64,000 bases of DNA from Octopus sinensis (Eukaryota). Below, in pieces: positions 10,211 to 39,103 of this stretch; within the stretch, counting starts at the first letter, position 1, and the number at the start of each line of letters is the position of its first letter. A program made the position numbers and the translations under genes. The notes under the pieces are model-generated. The model worked only from the letters and a program-made list of their open reading frames with translations. It was not told where the DNA came from and ran no database searches. The stretch spans positions 14,446,001 through 14,510,000 of the forward strand of contig NC_043017.1 of the NCBI RefSeq assembly GCF_006345805.1, in the 5' to 3' direction.

Positions 10211-10260
<50 letters not shown>

Positions 10261-12513: not shown

Positions 12514-12559
<46 letters not shown>

Positions 12560-12769: not shown

Positions 12770-12818
<49 letters not shown>

Positions 12819-13318
12819 CACACACAACCCATGACAATATTGAAAACGGACATTAAATGATGATCACACACACACACACAAACAGAAACGTACAGATCAT
12901 TTTCTGTCTGTTATTTGATACAATTAATTCCTTGTCACAAGACCTCCTAGAAATAATAACCAAATCTCCCACATATCTCATCTCACTATTTCCTCAAGAC
13001 TCATAATTGTCAGTAAAAGACAAGATGGTCACAAACTGGAATATATTTAATCAAATGCCAGCTAAATGAGGACTGACTCGGGGCTAAACACCACCACCAT
13101 GACAGTGTCATAGAGGATTCTACATGAAACTTCACACCTTTTCTAACCCACACGTAGGAAGAATTACCCTTTTTCTCTCTCCCCCCTTAATTATCATACA
13201 TTTTAATTAAAATCTCTCAATATATGTCTAATTATGTTGATAGAACGACACCATCTGGATTCAATCAACTCCAAGTGAAAACGAAAATCATTATCATATA
13301 TGATAATTATTAGTTTTG

Positions 13319-13463
13319 GTAGCAGTCGTAGCAGCAGTAGTAACAGCAGCAGTAGCATCGGTAGTAACAACAACAGCAGCGGCGGCGGCGGTGGTGGTGG
13401 TGGTGGTGGTGGTGGTGGTGGTGGTGGTGGTGGTGGTGGTGGTGGTGGTGGTGGTAGTCGTGG
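13319..13463. repeat. (AGC/AAC)n followed by (GGC)/(GGT)n trinucleotide repeat
   Basis: About 25 consecutive GGY units. Confidence 0.95.
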
Positions 13464-15498
13464 CATAGACAATAAACTAGCAATACTAAATGAAAATTTC
13501 TGATGTAAAAACTGGCGAGTGTGTAGTTTTACTCCTGACATTTTGTTTGCCGTCAGAAAGCTGTCATGTGCTGCAAGCAGCGGCCAGTCGAAGCTATCAG
13601 CATCACTATTGTCATCATTATCGTTGTCATCACAGTGTTTCACATTAATATGTAATGAACATTTACTGCAAGCAACAGTGGATATCGTTTCAATATGGAT
13701 GAGAAGTGAATCTATCATTATGATGTTTAATTACAATCCTCTGTAATATTATCATTGTCATAAGAGTATAATTCAATATATACACACATATATATATATA
13801 TATATATACATACATACCCGGCAACACAAGCGGTTGCACCATCATCATTATCATCATCACATACTTCACATTAATATGCAACACATACTAACATTACATA
13901 TCATTTAGATATTACCAAATAAGTGACTAGCGTTCTCCAATAACATTGCTCGCCATATGTTATCTGCTCATCATCATCACCACCACTACCACCACCATCC
14001 TCATTAGCGGTAAGTGAATCGAATATCATTATGATGATTGTCATCATCATCATCGTCCACATCATTCAGAAGAAAAGAGCAGATTAGAGAAAAAGTCAGC
14101 TCTTTCCAGCAAGACAAATCAAAATTCTAATTTCCTAGCATTTGATAAAAACATTTTATTTCACCTTTGCCTCGTCATTAGCACCCATTATTGAGTGCAA
14201 TATAAGAGGTTCAACAGTGGTTTGTGAATAATAAATAATTTGTTTAGCAAAGAAATGGAAGAAGGAAAATGAAGAAGATTAAAATATAATTAATTGCTTT
14301 TTGTTTAACCTTAGGCCCAGCTTGACCAAACAGACCTATGATCAAAACCATTCCAATTACGACCAAATAATCTAATATTTCTTAAGCTGTAATGTGTAAT
14401 TTCAAAACCATTTGGCTGCTATTTCAAGGAGGTCTACTCAAGGACAATACAGAGGCTCATAGTAAATATGGGGAACAGTTGAGTTTATAAAACAATAAAT
14501 GATTGCATTAGATATTGTTGTGTGCAGGCTGTATTTATCATATTGTTACATGTAGCAATAATAAACTAGTTTCTTCATTCTCAACAAAAGTCAAATGGAT
14601 TTCTGAACAAATAATAATATTCACATAGTGAGAGACAGAGACATAAATATCCACAACAAGCTCAATAGGCAGAAGCACCCGAGTGTGGGTGGACATACTT
14701 TCACAAAAACAAAAACACAATTTGCCAAGGTGCTCGATGGTGGGACTGAACCCGAAACCCAATTGTTACCAGGTGAAACCCCTTCAACACATGACAATAC
14801 CTACAGCCACCAACATAAACAGCATCAATGTTAAAACCTTTATCACTTACTCTATATTAAAGACCTTCTCTATTGTTATCGAAACCTTTCCTATTATTGT
14901 CTAATTAGAACCCTTCAGGTTTTGATTAGACTCTCCCCAGGGACTGATTACTGCCTCATATATATATGTCTTTTAGGGTCTAACTAGAGTCCTGTGTATT
15001 TTCTCCATTGTTTACCCTATATATAGCAAGCATATACACTTGGTCTCAAAATTGTCCAACAGAAATTTCCCATAGTCTATTAGTAAGGCACACACACACA
15101 CACACAATCCCCCCACCCACCCACATAGTCAACAAGACGTGACTCTCTATCTCTAAGTATTCACTCAAGCCACAAAAAGTAGCAACCAAATCCTTCTTAA
15201 ACACCTCTTTACTGTCTTAAACAAGGAAGAATGACATTAAATACTTCCTTATCTACAAATATAAACTTAAGAGCCACAGTTGGAATGTCAGTGATTCTAA
15301 CTCAGTTAAATCAGAGCCACCCACACATATATATGTACATAAATTATACATACATACATACATATATATAATGTTTAAAATTTACTCAACAAGACCATTG
15401 TACTGCTTAACAACTCCATACTTCTCTGAAGCATCTTTAACTAAATAACAAGCATTTTTTTTCTCTACATTCATGTACAAATATTTACATGCATTTAA

Positions 15499-15545
<47 letters not shown>

Positions 15546-16210
15546 CATGTATATACATATATAATATAAATACATAAACATATTATCATTCATACACACA
15601 CACAAACCTGTATAGTGCTAATTAGCTTTCTCACAGACCAACCCACAGCTATGTCACTGGCAAAGTATAGACACACACACACACACAGTCAATGCTACAA
15701 ATGCTAATACATTTACAATTATACAAAAGCCGTCAGTGATACACAGACACACAAACTATATATTAGATATTACATATATGCACATATACACACATGTATA
15801 TACATAAATATAGAAATGTGTGTGTGTGTGTGTGTGATCATTTAACATACACGTTTCCATGTTTGCACAGGTTAGAGAGTATTTTGCTGAGGCCGATTTT
15901 CTATGACCAGGTGTCATTCCTGGCACCAACCCTCACCTGCTTCCAGGTGAGGTAATACTTTCCAATGGCCAGACAGGTATTTTTTTAGTTTTTGTATGAA
16001 AGACTAAAAACAAACAACACAGCCTGTATGATGGTGTCACTCATTTGCAATCATCTTATGATGCCAGGACACACACACACATATTTCTAACTAATGCTAC
16101 CAGCAAGGAAGAGCAGAGGGAAAGATTTATGTATTATCACTCACTCTTCAGCTATATGCACAAACACATTATCTTTCACAGTTCTATTGTGTGTGTGTAT
16201 ATATATATCT

Positions 16211-16241
<31 letters not shown>

Positions 16242-16432
16242 ATGAAGAACAAATACAGAAGTTGGTATTTTACTTGAGTTTCATCTTTTGAATCATCAGA
16301 AATTTGACTGAAATGAAATTAGTAAAATATTGCATTGTGTGTAGAAAATATAAGAGAAGGAGGGGGGGTAGTAAAAGGAAAAGTGGGGGGAGAGAAACTG
16401 AAAATGTGTGAATCTAGAGAGAATATCTTTGT

Positions 16433-16502
<70 letters not shown>

Positions 16503-16819
16503 GGAAGCCTTTGAAAAAGACCTTCTATATATACATATATACATATATATACATATATATATATATACATACATATATATACACATATATACATACATAT
16601 ATATACACATACATACATACATATATATATAAATATATATACATACATATATATACACATACATACATACATATATATATAAATATATATACATACATAT
16701 ATATACACATATATACATACATATATATACACATATATACATACATATATATATAAATATATATACATACATATATATACACATATATACATACACATAG
16801 ATATATATATATATATATA

Positions 16820-17236
<417 letters not shown>

Positions 17237-17237
17237 G

Positions 17238-17273
<36 letters not shown>

Positions 17274-17519
17274 TGTATGTATATATGTATGTCTATAGGT
17301 GTATATATATTATATATATATGTGTATATATATGTATGTTATATATGTATGTCTATATGTGTATATATATGTATATATAATATGTGTATATATATGTATG
17401 TATATTATGTGTTATATATGTATGTGTATATATTGTATATATATTGTATGTATATATGTATATATATATATCTATATATATATATATATATATATATAAA
17501 TATCACCACACACACATAT

Positions 17520-17995
17520 ATCATCATCATCATTTAACGTCCACTTTCCATGCTAGCATGGATTGGACGGTTCAAATGGGGTCTGGGAAGCCAGAAGGCT
17601 GCACCAGGCCCAGTCTGATCTGGCAGTGTTTCTACAGCTGGATGCCCTTCCTAGTGCCAACCACTCCGTGAGTGTAGTCAGTGCTTTTTACGTGCCACCA
17701 GCATGGAGGCCAGTCGGGGCGGCGCTGGCAACGGCCACGTTCGGATGGTTCTCTTACATGCCACCGGCACTGGTATCACAACTACAATTCCCATTGATGT
17801 TGTTCGATTTCGATTTTCACTTGCCTCAACAGGTCTTCACAAGTAGAGTTTTATGTCCCAAGAAGGAAGGGTATGCATAAGTGGACTGGCTACATCCCAG
17901 GTAGAGGCCACGGGTTATGGTCTCACTTGTCCTGCTGGGTCTTCTCACACACAGCATACTTCCAAAGGTCTCGGTCACTAGTCATTTCCTCGGTG
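17520..17995 (-). mobile_element. RTE-LINE 3' tail / related SINE ending in (GAT)n
   Basis: Similar to 50950-51325, the tail of the RTE at 49882 (ggagtggttggcattaggaagggcatccagctgtagaaac...gacgttaaatgatgatg). Confidence 0.7.
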
Positions 17996-18032
17996 ATATA
18001 TACATAAATATATATACATATACACATAGACA

Positions 18033-18064
<32 letters not shown>

Positions 18065-18249
18065 CATATATACATATACATAGACATAAATATATATATA
18101 TAAACACACACACACACAAACAAATGCCTACATCTGATCATATATTCTTTTTAACTATTTCCCTTTCTGGTTCTATCCTAATGACTGCAACCATGCTGGA
18201 GCACCCACTTATGCCACTGCTACTGTTTCTGAAATGCTTTAAATAAATG

Positions 18250-19300
18250 AAGGTGTTTGGTGCTGGTATCCAGTGCTGAGTTTCTAGCCAAGGTATTGGT
18301 TAATCACAGACTGCAGGTGGTAGAGTACCCAGGTGTTTCTTGAATACATTTACACCCACACTGCACAGATTTCTCAATTTTGTTGGCCAGATACTGAAAA
18401 TCTGGGATCTTTGAAACATAAACTGTAGCAATATATGGCCTTGACCTTAAATGGGTGGTTTGCAGGACTCTGCAATGGTGACCAGTTCTCGATATCAAAG
18501 TTTGGAGTTAACCCTTCAAGAATCTTCCAAATATAAACATCACTGCATATCCTTTCAATGTTCTCTCCAGTGAGTGGAGCTTTAGCTCTTTCAAACTATT
18601 GCTAAGCTGTTGCTTTGAGGGGGTGATTTTTGTGAAGCTTTATTGGATTGCTTCTAAATCTGTTGTTAGTTTAACCTTGGTTGAGAACCAAAGTTGTGGG
18701 TCATAGTCTAGATGACTCAGGACAAATGTTAATCACAAAAGCAGCATAACTTCCTGCTTTCTCATCCTGGTGATCGCAGGATCTAACCCTCCAGCCTTTT
18801 GCATCTTTGTAATGTATACCTGGAAAGATGCAGTGTTGCCCATATTTCTTCCCAGGTCGTGCACTGACTGCTACAATCCTTCCAGGTTTGATGTAAACTA
18901 GTTGTGGGCAGGAAGTGGCCAGGTTAAAATTTTCCAGCCTTGAATTTTATGTTATTGCAATTAGCTCACTTTTAGATTACATTAAAGTCTTGTTGTAGGC
19001 ATGTAGCATCATCAGGACTCTTAACTGCCTGAGGTGCTTTTATCTCATCAACAGTGAGAGTGTTCATCATTAGAATTGAGGGCATGTCTGATGGAGCCAC
19101 CACAAACAGCAACAGCTCCAAGACAGTTCCTTGTAGGACTCAAGCCAAAATCAATATTTTCTTTTTGAGAGCACTGTTGGATGAGACTGTGTGTGACTTT
19201 TAATTCTTAAAAAATCCTGCAGTCAGTCTCCTAATATCTCGGCTAAGCCAAGATCATGCAGTTTGTGGCAGAACATCTTATGGACAACCTACTGAAGGCC
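18250..19300 (-). mobile_element. Decayed CR1/L2-group LINE, 3' portion of ORF2
   Basis: Minus-strand remnants LKELKLHSLER and YIWKILEGLTPNF; boundaries approximate. Confidence 0.55.
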
Positions 19301-19590
19301 ATTACAAAGGTGTGTTATATAATTTCCACACCTGAATGTTAGAGCAGCTGTTTCAGCATTCATGGCCATAATAGTGCAGCAGCCGTGTAAAGCAGCTTCT
19401 TCCAGAGTGAAAGCCATGAAGCCAGGCTGCACGTTAGATAATGAGTAATTATGTTGTAGGAACGTGACGACCAGTTTATATTTATGCAAACACATCATAA
19501 TCATCATTTAACGTCTGTCTTCTATGCTGAGATGAGTTAAACACATCCAAGTGTGTGTAAACACACATATACATGCATTATGTATATATA

Positions 19591-19656
<66 letters not shown>

Positions 19657-20717
19657 CATATATACCACACACACACACATACAGAAGTACATATGCACAT
19701 TTACATATATACACAAACACATATATGTACACATACACACATATAAAAATATGCATAGGTAAAGTTCTATTTAACTGGGCAAAAGTATGATAAAAGGGAG
19801 CTCAATAATGAGGAGGATCATAGCTTGTTTAGTGAGCTGCAAAGTAAAGACGACAATTTAGCTCAGCTGATGACCTGCAGTTGATAAGGCAAATGTTTTA
19901 GAAATGTCTCTTCTTTGTTAAATCAATCACAGAATCAAGACAATAGAATGTGTCTCAAGACGCACACATATATATATACACATACACATACATAAATATG
20001 CATAAACACATACACACACACATATATTAATATATGTATGCAAGTTCTTCTATCCAGAAATTTATTATTATCACACACACACACACACACTCACTCCTAT
20101 GTATGGAGGAGGGAGGAGTGAATGTGTGCTTGTCCATTACTTTAAACACTAAATATTCCTGTTTTTTCTCTTTCATTTTATTAGAACTTCCTAATTTTTG
20201 AATCAGCCAGCAAATCTCTGCGGATTCCACAAACATGTGCAGTCCCCAATATAAATGACAGGATGAACAAGGCTGTGACAACTTGTGTGACAATGATAAC
20301 ATTTCTAATTAGAGCTACACTCCTTCTAATCAGATTCCATAATTTCCATCTCTCCACCAACCCAAACCAAAGAATTGCATTAGCACTAAATGGGACCCAT
20401 GAAACAGATAAGGCACCTCTACATAATTATGTACTGAGTCCTTATTTGAGCAAGTGTTTTCCAGGATCTATATTTATACATCTTGATATATATGTACATA
20501 TGTACAGAAACATTAGCATTGTGAAGGCAATCCAGTGGAGATCTCTGGTTTACCAGCTCCTATCAAACCTACCAAACCATGGCAACATGGGAAACAGAGG
20601 TTCAATAATAATAATGATTCAAGCATACACACATACACATAGATATATGTGCATATACACACACATATATATAATTATATATACTTTATTTAAAAGCAGC
20701 AGAAATTCAACAAAACC

Positions 20718-20753
20718 TGTTACTCGGAGTTTCACGTTCCCGTTCGTCAGACA
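20718..20753 (-). ncRNA. Minimal type-I hammerhead ribozyme (Penelope pLTR-derived)
   Basis: Minus strand tgt-CTGACGA-acg GGAA cgt-GAAAC-tccga-GTA-aca: stem I tgt/aca, intact CUGANGA core, stem II acg/cgt, GAAAC, short stem III (ACT ccg AGT) and GUA triplet. Confidence 0.75.
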
Positions 20754-20854
20754 CTTTTCTTAAAATAAAGCATATTACTCTAACCCCGGCATCGGAGTAC
20801 TCTTTTTTCCACCTTGTTTCACATGTGTTTACTCCGGTATAAATATATATATAT

Positions 20855-20895
<41 letters not shown>

Positions 20896-21741
20896 TATAC
20901 TTTATATATATATACCACACATATACTTTATATATATAATCTAATTATATATATATATGTAAATAAAATAATGATATTATAATATATATATATATATATA
21001 TATATGTCTATACATATATATATACACACACACACATATATATCTATATATGATAACACCACTATATATACATATACAAACATATATATATATACACCAA
21101 ACATACATATATATATATATAATACATACATATATATTATACACATGTACATATATATATCTACATATATATCTACATTATATATTCTATACATAATCTA
21201 TATATACTATTACATATATATACATATATATATATATACATATACATACATATATATATATATATACATATACATACATATATATATATATATACATATA
21301 CATACATATATATATATATATACATATACATACATATATATATATATATACATATACATACATATATATATATATATACATATACATACATATATATATA
21401 TACATACACATACAATAGAATAAATACATAAATAATATATATATATATAGACAGATACATACATATATATTATACATATATCTACAAATAATATATACAT
21501 ATATATACATATATATATATACATATATATATACACACATATATATATACATATATATACATAGATATACATATATATATATATATACATATATAAATAT
21601 ACATATATAAATATACATATACATACATATATATATATACATATATAAATATACATATACATACATATATATATACATATATAAATATACATATATAATA
21701 TACATATACATACATATATAAATATACATATATATATACAT

Positions 21742-21774
<33 letters not shown>

Positions 21775-21896
21775 CATAATACATACATATATATATATAT
21801 ATATATAATACATATATACATACATATATATATATATATATACATATATACATACATATATATATATATATACACATATATACATATCCATAATAT

Positions 21897-21928
<32 letters not shown>

Positions 21929-22020
21929 CACATATATACATACTATATATATATATATATTACACATATATACATACATTTTTGCTAAATGGTCGTATTG
22001 ACAAGTTTCGTTTTTTTTCA

Positions 22021-22106
22021 CTTTCCCGAAGAGAAGATTGCATTGTTTATACCTTTTATTTCTTTTGAATAAGTATCAGTGGAATTTTTGAAACATATGT
22101 AGAAAG
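22021..22106 (+). ncRNA. Hammerhead ribozyme-like motif with long stem II and U4C core variant
   Basis: ctttc-CCGAAGA-gaagatt...aattttt-GAAAC-atat-GTA-gaaag: 5-bp stem I, palindromic stem III (ACATATGT), and core CCGAAGA instead of CTGAAGA. Confidence 0.6.
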
Positions 22107-23244
22107 AAAAATACGTGTTTAAACCTGCGTTGACTCCATTTTTTATTCCTATATTCAAATATTCAACGTAAACACGAAGTTTCAACCTTTATAAACAAGG
22201 AGTTACATACATACATATATATATACATACATACATATATATATACATACATACATATATATATATATACATACATATATATATATATACATACATATAT
22301 ATATATAATACATACATTATAGATACATACTATATATCTATATAAGCATACCATACATATACATAAGAACATATAATATATATATACATACATATATATA
22401 TACATACATATATATATATTATACATACATATATATACATATATATATATATACATACATTATTATATACATATATATTATACATATATATATCTATACA
22501 TACATATATATATACAACATTCTATTATACATACATATATATACATATATATTACATACATATATATATATATACATAACATATATATACATATATACCT
22601 ATATATATATACCACATATATATATACATATACATATATATATTTATAGTACATATATATATACATATATATACAATAATATATATACACATCTATAGAT
22701 ATATATATATATACATACATATATATATACATATATATACATATATATATACCATATATATAGTATAACATATATACATACATATATATAGACATATATA
22801 CTATACATATATACATACCATATATATATATATCCATACATATATATATATACATCATATATATATTACTACATATATATATACATACAATATATATATA
22901 TATACATACATATATATATACATACATATATATATATATATACATACATATATTACTACATATCATATAATATACATATACATACATATACATACATATA
23001 TATATACATACATATATAACATATATACATATAATATACATATATACATCATATTATATACATCCATATATATATATATACATACATATAATATACATAT
23101 ATACATACATATATACATACATATATATATATATACATACATATATATACATATATCATACATATATATCATATATATAGCATACATATATACATCATAT
23201 ATATATACATACATATATATAATATATATAATATATACATACTA

Positions 23245-23313
<69 letters not shown>

Positions 23314-23446
23314 CATACATATATACAATACATAACCTAGATATCTATATGTCATATATCATATATATACATACATATATATATATAATATGTATAATAT
23401 ATAAATATGTATATATATATATGGTACATGATATGTATTATATGTA

Positions 23447-23480
<34 letters not shown>

Positions 23481-23736
23481 GTAATGTAATATATATACAT
23501 GTATATATTATAATATCTATATATATATGATATATATATGTTATCTATATAAGATGTATATATGTATAAATATATGTATATGTATATTGATATATATATA
23601 TGTAGATTATATATATATATGTATATGTATTATATGTAATTGTATATATAATATATGTATATATATATATGTAATATAATATATATAGATATATAATATT
23701 GTTATATATTATATATGTATATATATTAGATATAAT

Positions 23737-23768
<32 letters not shown>

Positions 23769-23868
23769 TTATATATAAATATTATTAGAGACAAACCACT
23801 ATTTTGCAAAACAAACAAGGAAAGACTTAATCAATACATAAAATTTTAATAAATAGTCAAAAAAACCG

Positions 23869-23911
23869 CCACTACAATCGTTTCTTGTCTTGATCGACAA
23901 TCTTCAGGTGG
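23869..23911 (-). ncRNA. Minimal type-I hammerhead ribozyme (left arm of palindrome, identical inverted copy)
   Basis: Exact reverse complement of 23960-24002. Confidence 0.75.
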
Positions 23912-23959
23912 ACTTCCAATAAGTCAGTTTTCATAATTTGAAACTGACTTATTGGAAGT

Positions 23960-24002
23960 CCACCTGAAGATTGTCGATCAAGACAAGAAACGATTGTAGT
24001 GG
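23960..24002 (+). ncRNA. Minimal type-I hammerhead ribozyme (right arm of palindrome)
   Basis: ccac-CTGAAGA-ttgtc gatcaa gacaa-GAAAC-gatt-GTA-gtgg: stems I and II are perfect and the core is intact. Confidence 0.78.
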
Positions 24003-24451
24003 CGGTTTTTTTGACTATTTATTAATTTTATTATTGATTAAGACTTTCTTGTTTGTTTTGCAAAATAGTGGGTTTGTCTCTAATAATATTTTATAATATT
24101 TTACTATAAATTGGATTTAATCCTAATCTGATTTTTTTCCCTGTAAATTTGGATTTATTCCCTAATATTTATTATTATATATATATATATATATTATATA
24201 TATATATATGTATATGTATATATGTATATATATATATGTATATGTATTATATATATGTATATATGTATATGTATATATATAATATATGTATATGTATATA
24301 TAATGTATATATGTATATGTATGTATATATGTATATGTATATATATATATATGTATATATGTATATGTATATATATTTAATATGTATATTTATGTATATA
24401 TGTATATGTATATATATATTATGTATATATGTATATGTATATATATATATG

Positions 24452-24550
<99 letters not shown>

Positions 24551-24557
24551 TATATAC

Positions 24558-24620
<63 letters not shown>

Positions 24621-25390
24621 CTATATATATATATATATATCTATATATATATATAATATATACATATATTATACATATATATATATATATTATATACATA
24701 TATATACATATATATCCCTATATATATACATCTATATATATATATATATATAGATATATACATATTATATACATATATATATATACATATATACATATCT
24801 ATACATACATATACTACTACATATATTATACATATATATACATATACATATATATATAGCATATATACATATATATATACATATATATATTAATACATAT
24901 ATACATATATATATACATATATATATACCATATATATACATATATTATATACATATATATATACATATACATATATATATACATATATATACATATCCAT
25001 ATATAATATAATACATATATATATATACATATAAATACATATATATATACATACATATACATATATATACATACATATATACTATATATATAATAATATA
25101 TACATATATATATATACATATATACATATATATACATATATACATATATATATATACATACATATATATATACATACACATATATATATACATCATATAT
25201 ATATATATCATACATATATATACCATACATATATACATACATACATTATATATACATACATATATACATACATACATATATATATACATACATATATACA
25301 TACATACATATATACATACATACATATATACATACATACATTATATATATATAACATATATATATATATACATATATACATAATATATAC

Positions 25391-25439
<49 letters not shown>

Positions 25440-25547
25440 CAATATACATATACATATATACATATACATATATATATATACATATATACATATATACATA
25501 TACATATATATATATATACATATATACATATACATATATACATATAC

Positions 25548-25578
<31 letters not shown>

Positions 25579-26340
25579 CATATATATAAATATATATATA
25601 CATATGTATACATATATATAAATATTTACATCTATCTATATATACATGAATATGAGCGTCCAATTACACTATACTTGTTCCACATCCTCGCATTTTTGTT
25701 ATTTCTCTTTGTGTTTTCATTTTTGGATTAACTTCGTATATAAATACTCCAACCGCCTTCGTTTTTTGTTTATTTTCGTAAACTTTCCCTTTATATATGA
25801 ATATACATACACACACTCACACACACACATATATATATATTAAACTATACCCATATATATGTAATCATATATACACGCAGATGAGTTTGTGTGTGTGCTG
25901 TCCCCCCCCCCTCCCTGTTTCACTCATAATGAACTGATGTTCCCAAATCAATTGAAGCAGACAACATGCCCAAGGTGTCCTGCACAAGAATCAAAAGACC
26001 AGGCAGTTTTGAAAACATAGGCACACAACTGTGCCTCACACTATTATATCTTCATCATTTAATGTCCGTGTTCCAAGTTGGCATGGCTTGGATGGGTGGA
26101 CGGGATGTGTTAGCCACGATGCCCCAACGTCAGCTTTTGCAGGTTTCCTACAGGTGGACCCCCTTCTTGCCGATATGCAGGTGTGTGTGTGTGTGTGTTT
26201 ACACGTGTTTAAAGCAGGCAAATGACAAGAGAGTGAAAGCGGACAGGGAAAGGTGCAATGTGACAACATAAACAAAAGAAAGACTTTAATTACATCAAAT
26301 ATAATTAGTGAGTTTACGAAATGTAATAAAAGCTGTAAAT

Positions 26341-26349
26341 AAAGGATAT
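26341..26349 (-). other. U12-type (minor spliceosome) AT-AC 5' splice site
   Basis: Minus strand reads GAA TGG GG|ATATCCTTT, an exact match to the U12 donor consensus. It lies at the position where vertebrate Cav alpha-1 genes carry their first minor intron. Confidence 0.92.
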
Positions 26350-26543
26350 CCCCATTCAATGATGATCTTTGCATACTTGCGGATGAAGTTCTCCTCGCTG
26401 AAGATGAACAGCGACCGATTGGTAGAAGACCCCATGCCTGGAAGACTGATGGTGGCCGCCTTTTTGGCCACGAACCTCAGAGATCCATCATGTGTGTACT
26501 CAGAGTCGTCTCTGTTGCCACTGTCCGCTGAGAAGGTATTCAT
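26350..26543 (-). CDS. cac: First coding exon of a Cav2-type (cacophony / CACNA1A-B-E class) voltage-gated calcium channel alpha-1 subunit
   Basis: Translates MNTFSADSGNRDDSEYTHDGSLRFVAKKAATISLPGMGSSTNRSLFIFSEENFIRKYAKIIIEW-G. NRSLFIFSEENFIRKYAKIIIEWG is the conserved Cav2 pre-IS1 segment (vertebrate [24 protein letters not shown]). A polypyrimidine tract and AG (tgtttgtttctctcAG) precede G-ATG. The exon ends in phase 2 at a U12 donor. Confidence 0.93.
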
Positions 26544-26544
26544 C

Positions 26545-26562
26545 CTGAGAGAAACAAACACA
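26545..26562 (-). other. Probable 3' splice acceptor upstream of the Cav2 ATG exon (implies an upstream exon)
   Basis: Minus strand tgtgtttgtttctctcAG|GATG: pyrimidine tract plus AG, one base before the ATG. Confidence 0.55.
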
Positions 26563-27732
26563 CACCAAATAGAACACAGTCAACATACAACAACAACAGC
26601 AACAACAACAGCACCGACGACGACGACAACAGCAACAGCAACAACAACAACAACAAGAAGAAGAAGACGAAGGAGGTGGAGACGACAGTGACTGGAACTA
26701 TATCAGAAGACGGCTGACACAACACACAAGGAAAGCTGCACCAGCCACCGAATGCTGCTACATTGCTGTTGCACATTGTTGCAACCACGAGAAAGTGCAG
26801 CTTCACAAATCTTTTTCGTCACCATTGTCACCTGTTGTTGTTGTTGTTGTTGCAGGTGCTTTCTTTTGTTGTAGAATTAAAAATAATAATAATAATATTG
26901 TTGTTGTTAGTGTTGTTTTGGTAGTAGAAGTAGTAGTAATGATAAAAACAATAATAATAATAATAAACAATAATAATAATGAATTTTTGTTGATATTGTT
27001 GTAAATCGTTTTTATATGTGTGTGTTGTTGTTGTGATATCAAACTGGTGTTGTGATATTAGTACTGTTATGGTATCACATTTATTGTTGTTGTGATATCA
27101 CTTGTTGCAAAATCAATGTTGTTGTTGTTGTTGTGATATATTATTGTTCTTGGTGTTGTTGTTCTCCTCTGCTATTTCCTTGTGGAATGATTGTAGTTTC
27201 TCCTGTGTTGTTGTTGTTGTAACTCCTCAAAAGATGTATTTTTCCCTCTCACTGTAGTTTCTTGACACACCTTACACATACTCCAGTGTGTATAACATAT
27301 ATATACATACGTGTATATATAAATACTCCACTATACTGATATACTTATATACATACAACAATATCCCTATACATTTGTATATATATACATCCAAACAGTA
27401 CATCAATACACGTATGTATGTCTATAGATACATATATACACTTATATGCATGTATATATATACATATACACACATACACACCGTCAACAACTTTAGCTCA
27501 GTTTTTCATTTGGCTTTTTAACGTTTTTCTTCATTAAAAATATTTTGGAGGGATTTTCTTCTCTCTTTAAACGATTTTACGTAAGTTAATTCCACAATGT
27601 CATTGCTTTAGGAAAGTGAAAAATGTCGTCAGAAGAGACCAAATAGTAATAATTATTATTATTAACACTGTCTTCTCCTCTTTTTACTCCAATTTGCTTG
27701 TAAGTCCAGTTATAGCAAAGTGAGATATCCAT

Positions 27733-27761
27733 GGGGTCAGGGAGGGGCCGGGAGGGGCGGG
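27733..27761 (+). promoter_or_regulatory. G-rich GC box / G-quadruplex motif upstream of the Cav2 ATG exon
   Basis: GGGGtcaGGGaGGGGccGGGaGGGGcGGG: six G-runs, including GGGCGG. Confidence 0.35.
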
Positions 27762-29707
27762 CGACGAGGTTTTATTACTAATATTTAAATAATAATAAAT
27801 AATAATAATAATACTAATAATAATATAACGCTAATAATAAATAACAAATAACGATATAATAATGATAATAATAGTAATAATTCAAATGATAAACTATAAT
27901 ACTAAAAAACGATGATACTAGAAACACTACTAATAAATAATAAAGATTATGAAATAATTAAGAATGAATGAATCATTTGGATATGTGAGAAAGATAGATA
28001 GAAAGAGAGAGAGCTTGTGTGTGAGGGTTATTTGGAATATGGAATTGTGACAGAGAGAAGGAAGGTGTGACAGAGTAATTGGATATTCTACAGATGTGAC
28101 AGAGAAAAAGTAGAAAAAAAGGTGTAAGATTCAAATTTAATGAAGGAAAGATGTGACTAGCGGTTAGAAATAAATATAAAAATGATTTATTTGTCCTAAT
28201 GCCACTCTGTAGATTCAGGTGGGTGTATATAGGTGTGTATGTGTGCTTATAAGCTGGGTATTCTGCAGTATGACAGCAGAAACACATGAAATGAGGAGAA
28301 AAATCAAGTGTGTGTGTGTGTGTGAGGTTTATTTTAATTAACGAAAAACCAAGGGAATTTCAGAGGAAATTACACACACACACACATATACATACAGACA
28401 CACACACACACGCACGCACGCATGCACACACATACATACATTCATTCATTCACCAGTCATTCATACATATGCATCACACATACACACATATATGTATGTA
28501 GGTATGTATGTATGTATGTATGTAGTATGTATGTATGTATGTATGTAGGTAGGTAGGTAGGTAGGTAGGTATGTGTGTGATCTATAGGTGAAGACCAAGG
28601 TAGAAATCTGTTCGTTGCGAACGAGAATGAGATAAACAACGAAGGAAAAAAAGATTTCCTTATAAACGTCGATGTTGAATAAAAGAGAATAAAATTAAAA
28701 AAAAAACAATGATTATTTTAAATGTAAAGAATGAATTCCTTAAATGTTGTCTGAATAATTAACAATCGAAAATATATTAGAGGTAAAAGTGGTTTGAAAA
28801 GGAAATCAGAGATTTTCTACGTTTTTCTCTGTCTGAGAATGTTTAGGAAACAGGTGTCCGTGAGATGGAACTGAAGAAACGAACGAAATACTTGGAGACA
28901 ATTAACATTAAAATATAAAATAATTAAGGCATGCCAATGTTAATTAAATTCTTTTCATTGATATTTTGTAAAATTTGTTAAAAAATACACAAAATAATCA
29001 ACAAAAACGACTGAGTAACTGTTGTGATATTAGTAATAAGAGGGTAAAAAACGGGGAGAGAGAGAAAGAGAGAGAGAAATAAATGACTTAACAGGGTGTC
29101 CATAAATATTTAGTCTGCGTGTCTCCCCAAAATGTGGTTGATATGTCTATAAGACATATTAAACTGGTGGAATGAGAACGGCAACTTTCCCCTGTACGTC
29201 CACCATAGCCAGTACTTGGAACCTACACTGAACCATCTGAGAGACTTAATGTATGAGTGGGGGGGGGGTGCAAGTCTTCCTCTCTCTCTCTCTCTCTCTT
29301 TAGTCTTTAATAAACCATCTTTGTTACCCCCCTCTCTCTAGCTCAATCTCTTTCTCTCTCTTATGGTATGTTACCCTTTATATACATGACTCTCTCTCTC
29401 TCTCTCTTCTTATGCTACTCCTTCGCTTTATAACCCTGTCTCTCTTTTTTGTTATCCTCTCTCTTTATATATCTCTCTTTCTGTTGCTGTGTTACCTCTA
29501 TCTTTCTGGTTGTCTCACTTTTGTTATCTTACCCTCTCTATACGTATCTCAGCCCCCCGTCTCCCTCTCTCTCTGCTTAAGTCGTTCCCCCCATGACCAC
29601 TACCATCTCTCCCTCTTTGCTCTCCTTCTCTTTTCCAGTAAACCAATGGAAAGCAGAGAGGAGCGCCATCCACATTAATGCGAGATGGAGAACGTTTCAA
29701 CGATTGC

Positions 29708-29715
29708 TGACGTCA
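29708..29715. promoter_or_regulatory. Full CRE palindrome TGACGTCA in a CpG-enriched candidate promoter/5'UTR region
   Basis: Exact motif; 29650-29870 is CpG-rich relative to the rest of the window and lies about 3 kb upstream of the Cav2 ATG. Confidence 0.35.
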
Positions 29716-29924
29716 GGTGGAGGAGACAAGGTGCTCGCCGAATGAATGGGAGAGGAAGAAGAAGAAGAACGCACGGGGCTTGATGGCGAGACAGCGACAG
29801 ATAAACGGAGAAGAAATCGCAGAGATGGATGGATGGCTGTGTTGAGTACCCCGATTGCGTGGAGAGATGATGATGATGTGAAGAAAAGATGGATTGAGAG
29901 TTACAGAGCTCAGAAAATAGAGGG

Positions 29925-29968
<44 letters not shown>

Positions 29969-31105
29969 GATTGATGGATGGATGAACACAGCTAAATGGA
30001 TTATGTATGTATGTATGTATGTATGTGTGTGTGTGTGTGTGTGTGTATGCACGCGAACATACGTATGTTATGTATGTGTATGTATGTTTGCGTGCATTCG
30101 TATGATTGTGTCTATGTGTGTGTTTGTATGAGCGTACGTACGTATGTGTGAGTGTCTATCTGCAAGAACGTATCTGCATGTGCGCGCGCGTATGTGTGTG
30201 TAGTGATCGCTATTTAGCTGGCTGTGTGTGACTTTATTAATAGATAGCTACGTAGAGAGGGGCATAAATGGAAAGCGAGAGATTATCACTTAAGTAGATG
30301 AAGTGAGGCGAGGAAGGAGAGAAATGAAAGCTAACAAGGAGAGTAAGGAGAGACAGATTGTGTTTATGGCGGAGAGCTGGCTGCTTGCTTTAACTGGTCG
30401 TCGTCATCGTCGTCTATGGTTTTTACCTTAGAAGATGATTATTTTATCAACCCTGTTGTTGCTGCACCTGTGTGCATGCAGGGAGGATGCTGTTGGTGGT
30501 GGTGGTGGTGGTAGTGACGGCGGCGGTGGCGGTGCAGTTGCAAGATGTGTAACGGAGAGAGAAGTGTTTAGAGAAAGGTGAGAGATGACGAAGTAAGGAA
30601 CAGTTAAAGCTTGCAGACTATGTATATATATATGTATATATACACACACACATTATATACATGTATTATATATAAAGAATGTCATTCAATCCATTTTCTA
30701 TCAATTATCTATATTTATCTTGTGTATGTATGCATGTATGTATGTATGTATGTATGAGTGTAATAGTATTGAGACGTGTGTGTGAGGGGAGTTCACACTT
30801 GTCAGCTTCTGATGTGAAACAATGTATATGTGCGTATGGGTGTTATATATTTATAATATATACTGTATGGTATGGTGTCTAACGCATATTATACAGTATA
30901 CATGTAATAAACATTATATAAATCGTATATATTTTACTCAATATAAGTATCACATAAAATATGTATAAATACACATATACATAATGAGTATATCTATCTA
31001 TCTATCTATCTATTGTATATATGATATATACACTATATATAAGCACATGTAATAAGTATATTTAATATTTATATGCGTATGTGTGTACATACACATACGT
31101 ATATA

Positions 31106-31158
<53 letters not shown>

Positions 31159-31303
31159 GTACATACACATTTGTATATATCTATGTATATATAATATTTG
31201 TAAAAATATAATTTATATTTTATATATACAAAAAATATAATTTATATATGTGTGTGTACGGGTGTGCGTGTGTCTATGTGTGTGCGTGCATATGTGTGCA
31301 TGC

Positions 31304-31368
<65 letters not shown>

Positions 31369-32169
31369 AATCACTAATTTTTAAATGGTAATGGAAAGAA
31401 TTTGTAAGAGAAAAAAATAATAGCTCGCAGCACATGCAAACAGACTCTTGTTGCCAGAAAGCAAGAATATCTCTGTGAGTGTGGCAGAAGCAGTTTCTAT
31501 GTTGAAGATGTTGCAAGACTTTTATGGAATTAGTATGTTTTCTATTTATTTATTTATTATTATTTAAATGCTGGTGATCTGTGGAATTGGTAGTGTGAGA
31601 AAATGGTTTTAGTTTTATTGTTTCCAGTTCTTTACATCTTGAGTTCAAATTTCACCAACATAAGCGTAGGCTTTCATCCTCTTGGGGGTGAATAAAACAA
31701 AGTACCTCCCCCCACCCTGCCTGGGTAGTAAGCTGACAGAATTGTCTGAGGATTGGGACAAACACCATGTGACATATTTCAAGTTCAAATTTTGCTGAGG
31801 GCAACTTTCTTCCTCTGGGGTTGATAAAATGAGTGACCTATAAAATAACTGGGGTCTTCTGCCCCAATCATAAAGTTTTTTTTTTCTTTTTAATGAACCT
31901 TATGACTCATGAGGGTCAGCTGTCCAGTTTCCACAATATTCTTCTCTGAACTAGGATGATGCTCTATTGTACAATTCAAGGACAGCAGTTTTTGAGAGGA
32001 GGGGCAAGTCACTTATTTTATGTGCTGTGGTTTGCTGTGATGCTCTTATGATTACTGTATTGAAAGTGTTTTACATAGGATGTGTGCGGTTCCTAGTAGT
32101 GCCATTGGCACTGCACACGTAAATTACTATTATTATTTTTACAATTATCATTATTACTATTATTATCAT

Positions 32170-32219
<50 letters not shown>

Positions 32220-32790
32220 TTATTATTATTATTGAGTGAGAGAGCAGTGCATGCCATCAAAGTGACACTGGGGTACAATTATACGAAGCTCAGTATACCC
32301 ATCATGACTACTCGTCTGATAAGGGTACAGCAGGAACATGTATCATAATCACATGTGCGTGACATAGTGATCTTATATCAAGATAAACAGTGCATGACCT
32401 TGCAGGTGGGGCCCAGTTAAAATTTACTTCAGGTTTAGTGGCCCATCCCGCTCAAAAGGTCCCTGAATATGGTTTGTTTAAGAACGATGAATGAAACACC
32501 CGTGTTTCCAGAGGTGAATTATTCAAACCCCAAAGAATTCATTTCAACACATGGCTATGATGCTCTTCCACTACTTCTGCTCACCATCAGAGATGCACAT
32601 ATCGTCAGCCAATAAGGGACATGCTTAACTGGATAAGGTCAAAGAACTGACAAGCAAATCTGTGGGATTGAGCAGAATATTTGCTGTAGCCCATCTTTTA
32701 TACCAAGACAAATCATGTACATGATAACACTTCCAATCAGTTAAGATCAGAAACCATAACAGCCACTACCTGGTACTGCATCAGGGCATT
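32220..32790 (-). mobile_element. Interspersed repeat, probable non-LTR retrotransposon 3' UTR ending in (TAA)/(TAG)n
   Basis: Non-coding complex segment bounded by TAA-type microsatellite, as expected for R4/Dong-like elements; family assignment uncertain. Confidence 0.35.
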
Positions 32791-32795
32791 TATTA

Positions 32796-33930
32796 CACTG
32801 GGGAACATTAAAAAAAAAATTTTTTTCTTGCTTTTTAAAATTAATCCTATCTAATTTGATGGTTTTGGTTTCAGAAATGCCCCCAGAAATTTCCTATCAT
32901 GTCAAGTTTTTTGTTGAACAGGAATTCATTTTTTTTACCAAAAAATATCAATTTTGTCATTAAATACTGTAATAAGAAACTAACACAAACCAAATAGTAC
33001 TTTTTATTGTTTAACAGACACAAAACGTTTAATTACACCTCTTAGAATAAATATTTCTGTCAAACTGGAGTTTGAACTTCTCAAGGAATGAACTTTCTCT
33101 TTGTAGCTTTATGGGAATAAATTGCATCATGACAGCTTCTTTACGATGACCTGCAGTAGACAGCACCCTGTTGGTGTTGAACCTGCCCTGATACCTAGTC
33201 CCCATGTTCTCGATGTCTTGGTGGAATCTTTTTCCTTGCTCATCACTTATTGCCTTAGGATTTTCAAGCAAGTAGTCCAGATGACTTGTGCAGGAAATGC
33301 ACATTTACACTCAGGTTGCAACCCAGTGCTCGAAAACTAGTTAACAGGGTCTGCACAAGATCTTCATAATTTGATGGCTTCCTGTTTCTCAGGAAATCAA
33401 GTACAACTGCAACAAAAGCATTCCCTGCTTTTGGTCTCCAAAAGTAGCTCGTCCTGTGATAGTCCCCTAATATGTGGCCCATCAAACACACCAACCTTAT
33501 TTTTCTCACAAGACAAAGCTGGAAACTTTCTGCTTAAGCATTTGAAGCAGTCACTGCCTCAGTGTTTCAACACAGGTTTTGCCCACAATATGGGCTGCCC
33601 AGGCTTTGTCTTGTCACCCAGTTTCATCCTAAAGTAAAGAAGTGAGGTAAGCTTTTTTCACAAAATCTGTGATTTTGTTTCACTGCCTAATCCAGAAATA
33701 AGCAGAGGACATCAGAACTGTTTTGACATTCTCTTCTCTGACAACTGGCCATATTTCTGAAATACAAAACATATTCAAGCCAGTTGTCGGCTGGAGAAGC
33801 ATTTTCAGAATACTCAACAGTTATAAAGTAAGAAAATGCAGATTTGTGATGGCAAAATTCCATAAAGAGTATACACACCACGAAGTTCTCTTTACATTTC
33901 TTTGACCATGCTTAATGAAAAGTGATTTTG
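32796..33930 (-). mobile_element. Chapaev3-like (CMC) DNA transposon remnant
   Basis: Terminus tta-CACTG. Transposase motifs LGCNLSVNVHFLH, HLDYLLEN..ISDEQGKRFHQDI..M.TRYQG and a GV(F)DGP remnant. Confidence 0.7.
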
Positions 33931-34329
33931 ATCCATGTGACCTTACAATCAAAACATTAAGGGCACATTCAAAATACCAATTTCCATAAGAGACAGTTTA
34001 AAGTTCAACAAAGCATGTCTCATACTAAATTAAGCAAAGCAAGGGCAAATTTGCAGATAGATTCTGCAAATATGAGATGTATGGTGTCAAGGGCCACAAA
34101 AATATGTTGTTTCTTAAAATTTAAATGCAGAAAGGAAATTTCTGCCATCCTCATGACATTTAAAACTGGTTAAGTTCAAAATAATGAAAGTTGTTCAAGT
34201 TTCAATCTTTTTATTTACTAAAGATTATAACTTCTGCTTTCACTTTTTTAATTGTATTTACTTTAAATCATCCATCACTTTGAATCCAGGTTTTGTTTCC
34301 ATTAAGAGGGGTGGCCAGATCTACCTCAA

Positions 34330-35712
34330 TGCTATAGCAACCACCCTCACACCATCTTGCCATCTTGACTGGTTTGGGCATCCTCCCTTTTCAAGCCAAC
34401 CCTCCCAATCTCCTTCTCCACCTGTCCCCTCCATGTTTTTCTCAGTCTACCTTGCTTTTGCTCTCCATTTACCTCAAACTCGAGCTCCCTCTTCAGAACA
34501 TGCTCCCTCATGCCCATACTATCGCACTCCATTCGCCCTTGCCAGCAATTTCACTGATTCCTTCAACCCCAGCATCCCCATCAAGTCCTCAGTCCTCATC
34601 TTATCAAACAACCTCATGCCACACATTTCTCTCAGTCCATCTCAAAATTGCCGTCTCTCTCTCTCTCTCTCTCCCTCAAAAACCATGTCTCACTCCCATA
34701 CAGCATTGCAGCTCTCACACAACTCCTATTGACCCTTCCTTTCATCTTCAATGGAAACCTTTTCCCATATAACAACACTCCACTTTCCCTCAATTTCACC
34801 CAGCCAAGTCTTGTTCTTGCTGTCACAGCTGATTCCCATCCACCACTTACATCCACCCTATCGCTCAAATAACAAAACTCTCTCACCGTCTCCACCTCAT
34901 CACATTCTGTTTCCACTAATTTCGCCAGCCCTCCAGCTCCTTTCTCACATCTTCCACAAAGAAACTCCCTTGCTAGTCTTGGGCTCACCTTCATTTTCGT
35001 ACATCTGCCATGAAACTATTTATCACATCTCGTACACAACACTGTATTTACTATTACCCTCCTCCCATGTACACCACATGGATCCACCTTACTCACTAAC
35101 ACTTCTCCTTCCACCCCACTCACCATCACCTTTGTTTTCCCGAGGTTTACCTTCAAACCCTTGCTTTCAAATGCCTCCTTCCATTTCCAAAACTTCTCCC
35201 TCAATCCCTCCATCATCTCACTCATCAGAACAAGGTCATCCGCATACAGTATCTCCACCATCAATCCCTCCCTTGCACTCTCCATCACCACATCAACCAC
35301 TATTGAAAACAACAATGGTGACTACACAGATCCCTGATGCACACCAACTTTCACTGCAAACTCCTCCGACAGTTCTCATCCAATTCTAACTCTGGTCTCT
35401 ACCCTCTCATACAAACTCATCACTGCCCTCACTATTACCTCTAGTACACCCCTCTTCCTCAATGCCCACTCAATCACCTTCCTTGGAACCCTTTCAAATG
35501 CCTTCTCCACATCAACAAAGCACAACTCCTTCCTCTTATCTCGGTATCCCTCCAGCAGTCTCCTTACAATGAACACTGCATCTCTTGTACCCTTTCCTGG
35601 CATAAAACCAAATTGCATCTCATCTACATCCACCCCTTTCCAAATTCTCCTCTCCAACACCCTCTCCGCTATCTTCATTGCATGCTCCAATAACTTTACT
35701 CCTCTATACGGC
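34330..35712 (-). mobile_element. RTE-clade LINE, RT region, pseudogenised
   Basis: YRGVKLLEHAMKI, MQFGFMPGKGT.DAVF, FVDVEKAFERVPR, ILYADDLVL, GLKVNLGKTKVM and MLYGSETW. Confidence 0.92.
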
Positions 35713-37513
35713 ATTGAAAAGCTGTCTTCAAAGTTATGTCAAGCTCCATACCCTAACCCCACGGATCAATGAGTATCAGTAATATAATAAACTTTAGGGA
35801 ACTGACTGACTGACTTTGCTCTCCTTTCCCACAACATTCCTGTGGGTGGGGGTGGGGGTGCTTGTAGTAAAGTTAAAAACGTGTTGTTGTTATTGTTGCC
35901 GTTGCTGTTGTTGTTTACACTTAAAGTAAATAATGTTGTTAAGTGCTGGCATCTGTTGATGTTTAATTAAACTACATTAATGACAAATTGAGGGCACTTG
36001 TATGTGCTAGACATAGCAGTCAAATCTTCCTCTGATCATATCAGGACACACAATGTAATCCCAGATATACAATGTCTGAAAAATAAACAGATGGGTTTGT
36101 CATAGCTGGAATGTCACTTCTAGATCTGCTGACTCAGGCTTGACCTAGGGCTAAATAACAGCAACCAGATTGACAGTCAGCAGCAACGTGATACAGTGTA
36201 AGAATTTTTACAGACATGGATTACTCTTACTACCACCACCACTGTCACTGCTGCTACTACTACCACCTCCACAATGACCACCACCACCACCACCACCACC
36301 ACCAACACTACTACCACCTCTCATACTGCAACTACCACCACCACTATCCCCATTACCACTACAACCATTAGAACCACTACTACAGCCACCCCTATACCAC
36401 TACTACAACTGCCACTCCCAAGACGACCACCACTACCAGACAGTTTGCGTGACCAAGAAATAAAACAGCCAGGCTATATTATATTTGACAGACATTGACT
36501 GTATTTCACGTTAAAGTTGATGAGACATGAAATAGTTTTGAGCTGTTGCATTTTAAATAGGAGACATTTCTTGAAGACTCAGTGGAGCATCCAATAAAAT
36601 GTCAGGTTACATTTAGTTATCACCGTTTATATTCTGAGTTCAGATCCCACTGATGTCAGTCTTGCCTTGATTAAATACACTGTCCATGTTTTGGCTCATG
36701 TTAGTCTTGTTGAGTCGGTAGAGCATCCACAGACCTTTAGGTTCTCAGCTCAAATCTTACCAACATCAATTTGACTCTTGTGGGGCTGAGTAAATAAAAC
36801 ATCAGTCATACATTGAGGTTGGTGTATATATTCCTATCATGCCTTGTTAAATGTGAATGGGGGGAGGCAGAAGAGGAGGAGGAGGGGGACAACAACAATG
36901 AGGATGAAGAGGACGACGAGTTGATGTTCTCTTTTTTGTTTATTTGAATTTCATTGCAAACCATCCAGGGTCAATCCAGATGTTTACAAAGATTAAAGAA
37001 TGTCATGGTGACTATTTGAAATCACATGTGTAAAACTAGTTTCTTCCCTTCCATCTTGATAAAAGGCTTATGCCCAAATCATTGGTTCCATTTCTTCCTA
37101 TTTCCACCTGGTAGAATTCATTGATTGTTTTCTTTTCATTTCTCTTTTTGTCCAAAAATTGGTGCATTTGGATTTTTCTCTGTCGATTCCCATCACCAAC
37201 TGAATTCCTCAGATTTTGGACTTCCTCAAATAATATTATTAGCTGCTGCCCTGTTTGAAAGTTCTGTATTTGATTTAAGTTTATCATCTTCACAAAGCTG
37301 ATAGTCTTTTCCTTTTAAATCAATTCTCTGTGTGTTTGATCGCTCCAAGCAAGTTTGAGTGAAGATACCAAAATGTGTGCAAAAGACAGCAACAGCATTA
37401 GAACGGATTAAAGAACAACACCAACAACAACAACACTTGAAAGAGAAAAATAAATGCTTCTGTATGTATGCAACATTTGTATATGTATCTGTGTGTATGT
37501 GTGTGTATATATG

Positions 37514-37552
<39 letters not shown>

Positions 37553-39103
37553 ATATATATGTATGTATATGTATGTGTCAATATACATATGAATTTTTAA
37601 AACAACAATTCATTTAACAAAACAGGCAAAACAAGGAGAAAACATAATGAAAGTTCAGTAATATTGATACATTAAAAATATAAATTACACAACAATCAAC
37701 ATTCTAATTATTAAAACAGGGGAAAAATACCGTTTGAATATTATAATTAGCTAAAACTACAATTGAGTTGCAGTTGTTAAAGAAGCAGTCTTTCCTTGCA
37801 CACACCATTCAATAAAACAGTTAAATTGTAACTAAATGTGAATGCATGTATGTGGTGTGTGTGTGTGTGTGTGTGTGTGTGCACGTGCGTGTGTGTGTGT
37901 GTGCATGTATGTTCATTCCAGCTGTTGGTGAAAACTTTTATTCCATCTGCTGAGAAGAAGCAATCTTTCCTTATAATACTGGAGATGAAGGCTGTACTCC
38001 AGCATGGCCAAAACAAAAGGAAGACAAAGCTAACAAAGTGGTCTTAGCATGAGTTAATCTTTTATAATAATTGCATTACCATTTGGGATGTTACCGTATA
38101 ACTGCAGTGCTGTCCTATGCTAAGACTGTCATACTGTAACAGTTGCATTCAAGAACATTTTATGGGAATATTCGATTGATCTCTGACATTTGTTGATAAT
38201 TTATTTAATGACCCAGAAAAGTCGAATGACAAACTTTACCTAAATCAGATACAAACTAAAACCACAAAGATCCATTAGTACTGCCTGGCATTTAATCTGA
38301 TTCTCTAAGGATTTGACCAATCAGATTATTGCGTACTTTAGCAATTGGTGAACTATTGAGTAATTGATTACAAGTCTCTAGCAGCAGCCAGTCACTAGCA
38401 AACTGATGTGAGAATGACAAGGGAGTATCTGTGACTGGGGTCAGAACAAACATCACAGAGTTCTTTTTTAAGAACACCATTTTGTATTGATTTTCTTTTC
38501 CCCCTGTGATTACTTATGTTACTGACAGCTTGTTGCTGGAGTTGCAGGGAAATGAGGAAAATCTCATTGGCTGGGGAAATAATAAACTGAAGCAACTTGC
38601 AACCGTTTGACTGATTATTTATTGCTGGACATAATAAAGATATTGGGTGTTGGTTATTTACAATGAGCAATATAAATAATTAGTGAACGGCAAAGAGACA
38701 AACTGCACTGAAATTATAGAAAGCTATCTGTGTGGCAACATGCAGTAGCAAACGGTTTGTTGGAGGGAAAAGAGGTTGTGTTCAGGAATAATTGAGTCAA
38801 CCATATCACACCATAGCCTTACTCTGATTGGTTGATTGATCACATAAAAGGATGGCAGTTCACTTGAGGTGTCTGACCAAGTGTCTAGGGATTAGGCTTT
38901 GAATCTCTGTTACATACACTTCATTGGTGCAGAAACACATGACAGGTTTCTGTACAGTTTCCATCTACCAATTTAGCATTACAAGTTATTGTTCATCCTA
39001 AGGCTGTTATAGGGGACACTTGCTCAAGATGTTGAGCAGTGGGACCAAACAAGAGACAAAACTGAAGACAAAACAAACATTTTACCCACACAATCTCTGG
39101 CCT

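Follow-up and report, generated by a model that had tools for sequence, protein, structure and literature searches.

The minus strand of Octopus sinensis carries a 195-nt exon of a Cav2 (presynaptic calcium channel) alpha-1 gene that is followed directly by a U12-type 5′ splice site of the AT subtype, and assembled contigs cut at this AT join the exon in frame to exon 2. No exon 2 is present in the 26,349 nt that follow within the window (the whole stretch of 64,000 nt analyzed here, to which all positions refer). We consider it about 90% probable that the site opens the conserved intron ahead of segment S1 of domain I (D1S1) of Cav2, at least 26 kb long, and that this intron is excised by the minor spliceosome, with a branch point and an AC end predicted beyond the window. 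By established minor-spliceosome biology, U11 and U12 would recognize the donor and the branch point, U6atac would catalyze the excision, and the intron would end in AC.

Identity of the exon and its host gene

The exon lies at positions 26350..26544 (minus strand), and contigs of two sequencing runs (X5 and X12) span exactly this interval. Read along the minus strand, an AG acceptor is followed by a single G, an ATG at 26543-26541, 64 codons up to I-I-E-W and a final GG; the exon is in phase 2 at both ends. It codes for the cytoplasmic N-terminal segment as far as the beginning of domain I S1. As shown by tblastn, all 65 residues are identical to those of the RefSeq Cav2 proteins of O. sinensis (XP_036367714.1, residues 75-139, and XP_036367713.1) and Octopus bimaculoides (XP_052831401.1 and XP_014784009.1), and the first 22 are identical to the Octopus vulgaris model CAI9738067.1 (P0024). 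The three PDB matches of the exon, at E up to 10, were all Cav2.x channels (human-type Cav2.3, 2.2, and 2.1). The gene is a Cav2 alpha-1 gene rather than a Cav1, Cav3 or Nav gene, with 100% identity to the annotated octopus type A alpha-1. Pfam detected no family in the 64-aa exon, and Rfam gave no match anywhere in the 64-kb window.

The donor and its use in spliced contigs

The exon end reads ...ATT GAA TGG GG, with 26350 as its last base in phase 2, and is followed by ATATCCTTT at 26341..26349 (minus). This sequence fits RTATCCTTT in its AT subtype at 9/9 positions, in line with the U12 5′ splice-site consensus given in the legend of Figure 6 of PMC6259924. RTATCCTTT occurs in the window at close to the expected frequency (3 observed vs. 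2.25 expected), and it is therefore the place of the nonamer, not its presence, that constitutes the signal: the chance of finding it at one given position is approximately 2e-5, and here it stands directly after the conserved I-E-W-G end.

The exon or a part of it was present in 20 sequencing runs, none of them recorded as RNA. Donor use was examined on contigs of four runs (X3, X5, X7, and X12; one per study, four studies), mapped on positions 25925-26580; the runs were taken as RNA by guess, and the data are contigs instead of reads or single molecules, so that rare forms drop out. In three of the four runs (X3, X5, and X12, from three studies) contigs matched the exon without difference, left the genome with loose ends at 26350 and continued with the same letters. 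Read by eye, these letters complete a Gly codon and then give P-F-E-Y-M-V-L-L-T-I, which is exon 2 of the octopus Cav2 model P0031. The fourth run, X7, contained a single unspliced contig across the donor (26261-26580, depth 4.4), derived either from pre-mRNA or from DNA. Since the first letter past the joint is G in the contigs vs. A in the genome, and moving the cut upstream into the last exon bases uncovers neither GT nor GC, the donor has to be AT. The X3, X5, and X12 contigs thus use the AT of ATATCCTTT, their status as RNA being a guess. The AT-AC-type donor in phase 2 after EW-G, proposed by the sequence-only reading, was confirmed as far as the 5′ side is concerned.

Splicing at a nearby GT was named in that reading as an outcome that would speak against it; in the contigs of the four runs none of 16 such dinucleotides (nine in the exon and seven in the first 120 bases of the intron) showed a joint or a loose end. 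Editing of A to I as the origin of the G after 26350 was rejected, since a valid donor would then be missing and since most related exon 2 copies begin with G. Loose ends at 26048 and 26085 were likewise discarded as splice events, being due to a dispersed 38-nt repeat (three other letters each). Reading through the donor leads to a stop after 82 codons.

Extent of the intron within the window

Positions 1..26349 (minus) belong to the D1S1 minor intron and make up its 5′ part, with exon 2, the branch point and the 3′ end placed beyond position 1. When full-length Cav2 proteins of O. sinensis and O. bimaculoides (P0031, P0056, and P0057) were searched against the 64 kb by tblastn, they matched only at 26543-26349, and no further Cav2 exon was detected. 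The 30 nt with which exon 2 begins in the contigs were absent from the window at up to three mismatches. Because exon 2 is missing from 1-26349, the intron measures at least 26,349 nt, and its true length could far exceed this bound. Both searches agree, within the window, with the initial by-eye claim that this interval holds no exon 2 and that the intron is longer than 26 kb. A lone PFEY at 37730 was dismissed as exon 2, as it lies on the plus strand and runs into an immediate stop.

It could be argued that this length is an assembly artifact caused by a misjoin downstream of the exon, as long microsatellite blocks such as that at 20838-25644 are spots where assemblies fail. However, the window contains no N, and the O. 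vulgaris model links the exon to position 13667 on the same strand, past the microsatellite block, although that model may share the same or a related assembly. We find a misjoin barely credible.

Alternatively, the intron might be removed stepwise, through recursive sites or through U2 introns nested in the U12 intron, so that the minor spliceosome never spans its full length. A stretch of 26 kb can hold many U2-like sites, and a table of PMC2831892 names two Drosophila genes with U12/U2 twintrons. Against this, no joint was seen within 25925-26580, the only part on which contigs were mapped, no TCCTTRAC occurs in the 64-kb window, and the intron part at 1-26349 contains nine weak branch-point-like matches. 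Stepwise removal appears to us very unlikely.

The 3′ end as seen in related loci

As the 3′ end of the octopus intron is predicted beyond the window, we turned to related loci, namely the best 80 of at least 127 stretches from a metagenome scan, many of them near-duplicates and classed by a loose pattern. An intron precedes exon 2 in 56 of the 80: 40 end in AC, two end in AG with a branch-point-like motif, and 14 end in AG without one. The motif was found 12-25 nt upstream of the end in 37 of the 40 AC-ending loci (30 distinct among the 37) and was missing from three. Another 15 of the 80 have no intron, owing to loss or to an origin from transcripts, and nine show only a GTATCCTT donor. The boundary GG/G within the Gly codon before P-F-E-Y, just ahead of domain I S1, is the same in the related loci as in octopus. 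Complete AT-AC introns were recovered in four of them, with lengths of 5,930 nt (L045), 463 nt (L062), 684 nt (L063), and 947 nt (L064, weak signals); the end was thus AC wherever a complete related intron began with an AT donor (4/4). The apparent donor of L029 proved to be a false pattern match and was excluded from the complete introns. Since AC ends dominate the related loci, an AC end is likely for the octopus intron as well, and the intron would likely be removed by the minor (U11/U12/U6atac) spliceosome through a TCCTTRAC-type branch point.

The 14 loci with AG but no motif (L007-L009, L011, L019, L020, L022, L023, L025, L027, L028, L030, L031, and L036; 10 distinct) have a U2-like GT-AG intron of 48-64 nt with a T-rich AG end. 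In nine loci (L072-L080) the D1S1 position carries GTATCCTT, a U12 donor of the GT subtype, vs. only two branch-point acceptors that end in AG; as these donors and the acceptors lie on separate contigs, a switch of subtype, paralogues and GT-AC pairs are indistinguishable.

The same donor could also belong to a minor intron with mixed termini or in decay (AT-AG, or AC preceded by a weak branch point) that is heading toward U2 conversion. All states are represented among the related loci: two AG ends with a branch point, three AC ends without, 14 short GT-AG introns of U2-like type, 15 loci lacking the intron and nine with GTATCCTT. Nevertheless, the donor examined here is a perfect match to the AT consensus (9/9), and every related locus with an AT donor and an acceptor ends in AC. 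A decaying intron is in our judgment extremely unlikely.

The D1S1 intron and its length in other species

The U12-type (AT-AC) intron at the D1S1 position is treated in PMC6259924, which cites Spafford et al. 1999; Wu and Krainer 1999 is a further work cited for it. Section 7 of PMC6259924 describes the AT-AC site as conserved in nearly all Cav and Nav channels, Lymnaea being among the aligned genes, and a corresponding statement on L-type channels is found in PMC3634016. The octopus intron shares with the D1S1 intron of calcium and sodium channel alpha genes, as presented there, the position before domain I S1, the donor ATATCCTTT and the Cav2 host gene. No difference from the class was found, with the 3′ end of the octopus copy predicted, and the available part of PMC6259924 does not name that copy. 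The octopus intron is therefore the known D1S1 U12 intron of Cav and Nav channels, i.e., an already known feature in one more species; the initial view of an anciently conserved AT-AC intron is right as to the donor, the AC end being predicted. A literature search that mostly did not reach subscription journals found no work dealing with either this intron in octopus or the long N-terminus of Cav2, and the intron tables of PMC10639083 may list the intron.

Judged by its lower bound, the intron falls into the upper tail of the minor class in length, yet it is typical for the D1S1 position in large genomes. We take the long minor introns of CACNA1A and CACNA1E to be D1S1 orthologues, going by their 5′ place in the table discussed below. 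According to supplement 8 of PMC6717393, the human minor introns measure 50,719 bp in CACNA1A, 26,466 bp in CACNA1E and 836 bp in CACNA1B, and their mouse orthologues 45,546, 24,270, and 882 bp (Cacna1b last). The first minor introns of CACNA1A and CACNA1E, 24-51 kb in the two mammals, share the AT donor with octopus, and in supplement 1 the donor of mouse Cacna1a is listed as GCC followed by ATATCCTTT. A by-eye count in supplement 8 (part 4 of 9) gave six of 178 mouse rows with lengths over 26 kb, and mouse minor introns of 54-551 kb are listed there. Our value of 26,349 nt, which is only a lower bound, exceeds neither the orthologues of 26,466 and 50,719 bp nor these mouse introns. On the other hand, the CACNA1B intron is short, as are the four invertebrate introns recovered in full, so that a length over 26 kb speaks to some degree against our main reading. 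According to part of PMC7367187, mean U12 intron length correlates with genome size (r 0.87), with no restriction by intron definition. PMC10639083 reports a rho of 0.903 between median major and minor intron lengths, includes O. sinensis in the minor-intron conservation figure and describes molluscs as relatively enriched. Given the mammalian orthologues of 24-51 kb, the tracking of genome and major intron size, and an adjoining U2 intron of at least 37 kb, the earlier description of the length as unusual is not supported. The intron would likely be recognized through exon definition over the short exon, as in the mammalian orthologues, which are just as long.

The sequence-only reading also proposed a rate-limiting splicing step. 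A large minor intron that controls Cav2 output in octopus neurons in this way, under selection, would be compatible with removal of the D1S1 intron by the minor spliceosome. Minor introns as a class show on average 2-fold more retention, as stated in part of PMC4066798. However, the adjoining U2 intron is no shorter than the known part of this one, and a pan-eukaryotic survey attributes much of minor intron evolution to neutral processes (PMC10639083). Selection for a control point is, in our opinion, unlikely.

Repeat content of the intron

Tandem repeats detected with TRF make up 6,610 of the 26,349 nt (25%; 23% for periods up to 6) vs. 12% in the upstream region. The largest block is a TA-rich microsatellite of 4.8 kb (20838..25644) with a GC content of 0.16-0.22. 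Transposase families were matched by two of the 68 unmasked intron frames of at least 60 aa, both in one degenerate mariner/Tc1 transposon at 7072..8345 (plus strand; PF17906 and PF01359) that is bounded by perfect terminal inverted repeats of 39 nt. While its inverted ends match at 100%, its transposase frame is broken. Recognizable transposon thus amounts to 5% of the intron (this one mariner, 1.3 kb), less than the microsatellites (23%), and is a lower bound because no repeat library was applied. Repeats occurring twice within the window cover 7% of the intron, and approximately two thirds of it has no assigned repeat class.

The sequence-only reading had the intron inflated by transposons; this is borne out in part, by the one mariner, but the tandem repeats contribute more and most of the intron is unclassified. 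Growth was most likely neutral, through accumulation of microsatellites and transposons as in the adjoining U2 intron, which we can only infer given the two thirds without repeat class.

Two further elements were noted in the intron. A non-repetitive frame of 174 aa at 10469-10990 (minus) gave a weak RET_CLD4 match below the cut-off (E 0.0012). A fold-back element at 9640-10178 has arms of 166 nt (99%) and 100 nt (94%) that are complementary; judged from its letters, it may possibly form a long double-stranded RNA in the pre-mRNA and is a candidate for A-to-I editing.

Mis-annotation at the donor

The donor was also expected to mislead gene finders, and several models are indeed broken here. 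The O. vulgaris protein CAI9738067.1 tracks the exon over 26543-26478, jumps to intronic position 13667 and then ends. It likely uses an internal GT at 26475 (26469..26475, minus), where the contigs of the four runs have neither a joint nor a loose end. Its pseudo-exon at 13608..13667 (minus), identical to residues 134-153 of the model, lies outside the contig-mapped stretch 25925-26580. A Sepia model (P0014) likewise exits inside the exon. Of 25 protein matches of 113-2000 aa, four are joined correctly, two exit early and 19 continue through the donor (G-Y-P or G-Y-S); a good many of these 19 are simple ORF calls made from unspliced contigs. Eight of the nine NCBI-named proteins in this set are broken at or before the donor, a count in which fragments are favored since the search was limited to 113-2000 aa. 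All 25 long proteins (892-2545 aa) are joined correctly. The RefSeq octopus proteins likewise join E-W-G-P-F-E-Y correctly across the D1S1 intron and differ from each other upstream of the exon, where two have long N-termini and one a short one.

An annotation bias against U12 sites is already known (PMC1635337, in part). The D1S1 donor represents a verified annotation trap: with 8/9 of the NCBI-named proteins broken at or before it, models of invertebrate Cav2 often lack their 5′ end or carry it as a separate piece.

The upstream intron and possible alternative 5′ ends

The exon is preceded by a U2-type acceptor at 26545..26565 (minus; pyrimidine tract, AG at 26546-26545) that ends the upstream intron of a long isoform. 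In two of the four runs (X5 and X12) contigs are spliced into 26544 from an upstream exon ending in R-L-K-N-V-K-H-Y-P-E, by eye the same as in P0031. This exon was not found in the 64-kb window, and the U2 intron (26545..64000, minus) is accordingly at least 37,456 nt long. The exon had initially been called the first coding exon of Cav2, which is valid for a short isoform; in the long isoform it is internal, with its own AG acceptor. In mammals the D1S1 intron follows the first exon, as opposed to the internal exon of the long octopus form.

Contigs that run past 26545 unspliced were also present (X12 record 4, with 1,878 nt; X3 record 7; X7 record 10), and in X3 the same contig that is spliced at the donor continues unspliced past the acceptor. 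The 3′ part of the upstream intron is probably, or at least possibly, an extended alternative first exon, the alternative being precursor RNA. If collinear, the X12 contig would start in a microsatellite near 28.39 kb (26545-28392, minus), and because of this the true start may be further upstream. In the genomic frame a stop lies 13 codons upstream of the ATG, so that RNA unspliced at the acceptor would give a short protein (P0060). An Aplysia cloning primer begins at the homologous Met, as given in part of PMC5818475. In the octopus models (P0031, P0056, P0057, and P0060) three different 5′ forms meet at this same Met, P0057 having yet another first part. A long N-terminal extension was found in 25 proteins from molluscs and one nemertean, with 57-92% identity. 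It contains a conserved module of an RRRAS basic motif, which we take to be kinase-site-like, and a TSD-R-CAILQ block.

Within the upstream intron a perfect CRE palindrome, TGACGTCA, occurs at 29708-29715 (minus); the window contains three copies vs. 0.41 expected, and 2/100 shuffles reach three, a count that serves only as a lead, given that the motif was chosen after being noticed. About 60 nt downstream of it, near 29650 (minus), is an ATTGG box, and a GC-box-like stretch lies at 27735-27770. From its motifs, the CRE/ATTGG stretch is a possible proximal promoter.

The upstream intron also holds transposon remains, at 35016-35738, 50071-50397, 51682-52410, 54086-54472, 55232-55666, and 57212-58963. 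They include RVT_1 (LINE reverse-transcriptase) pieces at 35-36 kb and 50 kb and Tc1-like HTH pieces. Some frames in this intron resemble a Penelope-type element; Pfam gave no match for them.

Implications for Cav2 expression

Alternative 5′ ends would converge on the exon, and they might act as a switch. More than 37 kb upstream, a distal exon would supply the mollusc/nemertean module, while a proximal intronic promoter would give a short Aplysia-like channel in which the minor intron comes first. The promoter used would thereby decide on the N-terminus as well as on the splicing efficiency of a slow intron, providing an activity-regulated switch on presynaptic calcium entry. We regard this scheme as a whole as quite unlikely.

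With octopus, this ancient and already known minor intron is documented in a further species, and its size follows that of the genome. The long and short N-termini that meet at this exon would be relevant to the physiology of molluscan synapses, should the two forms differ in behavior.
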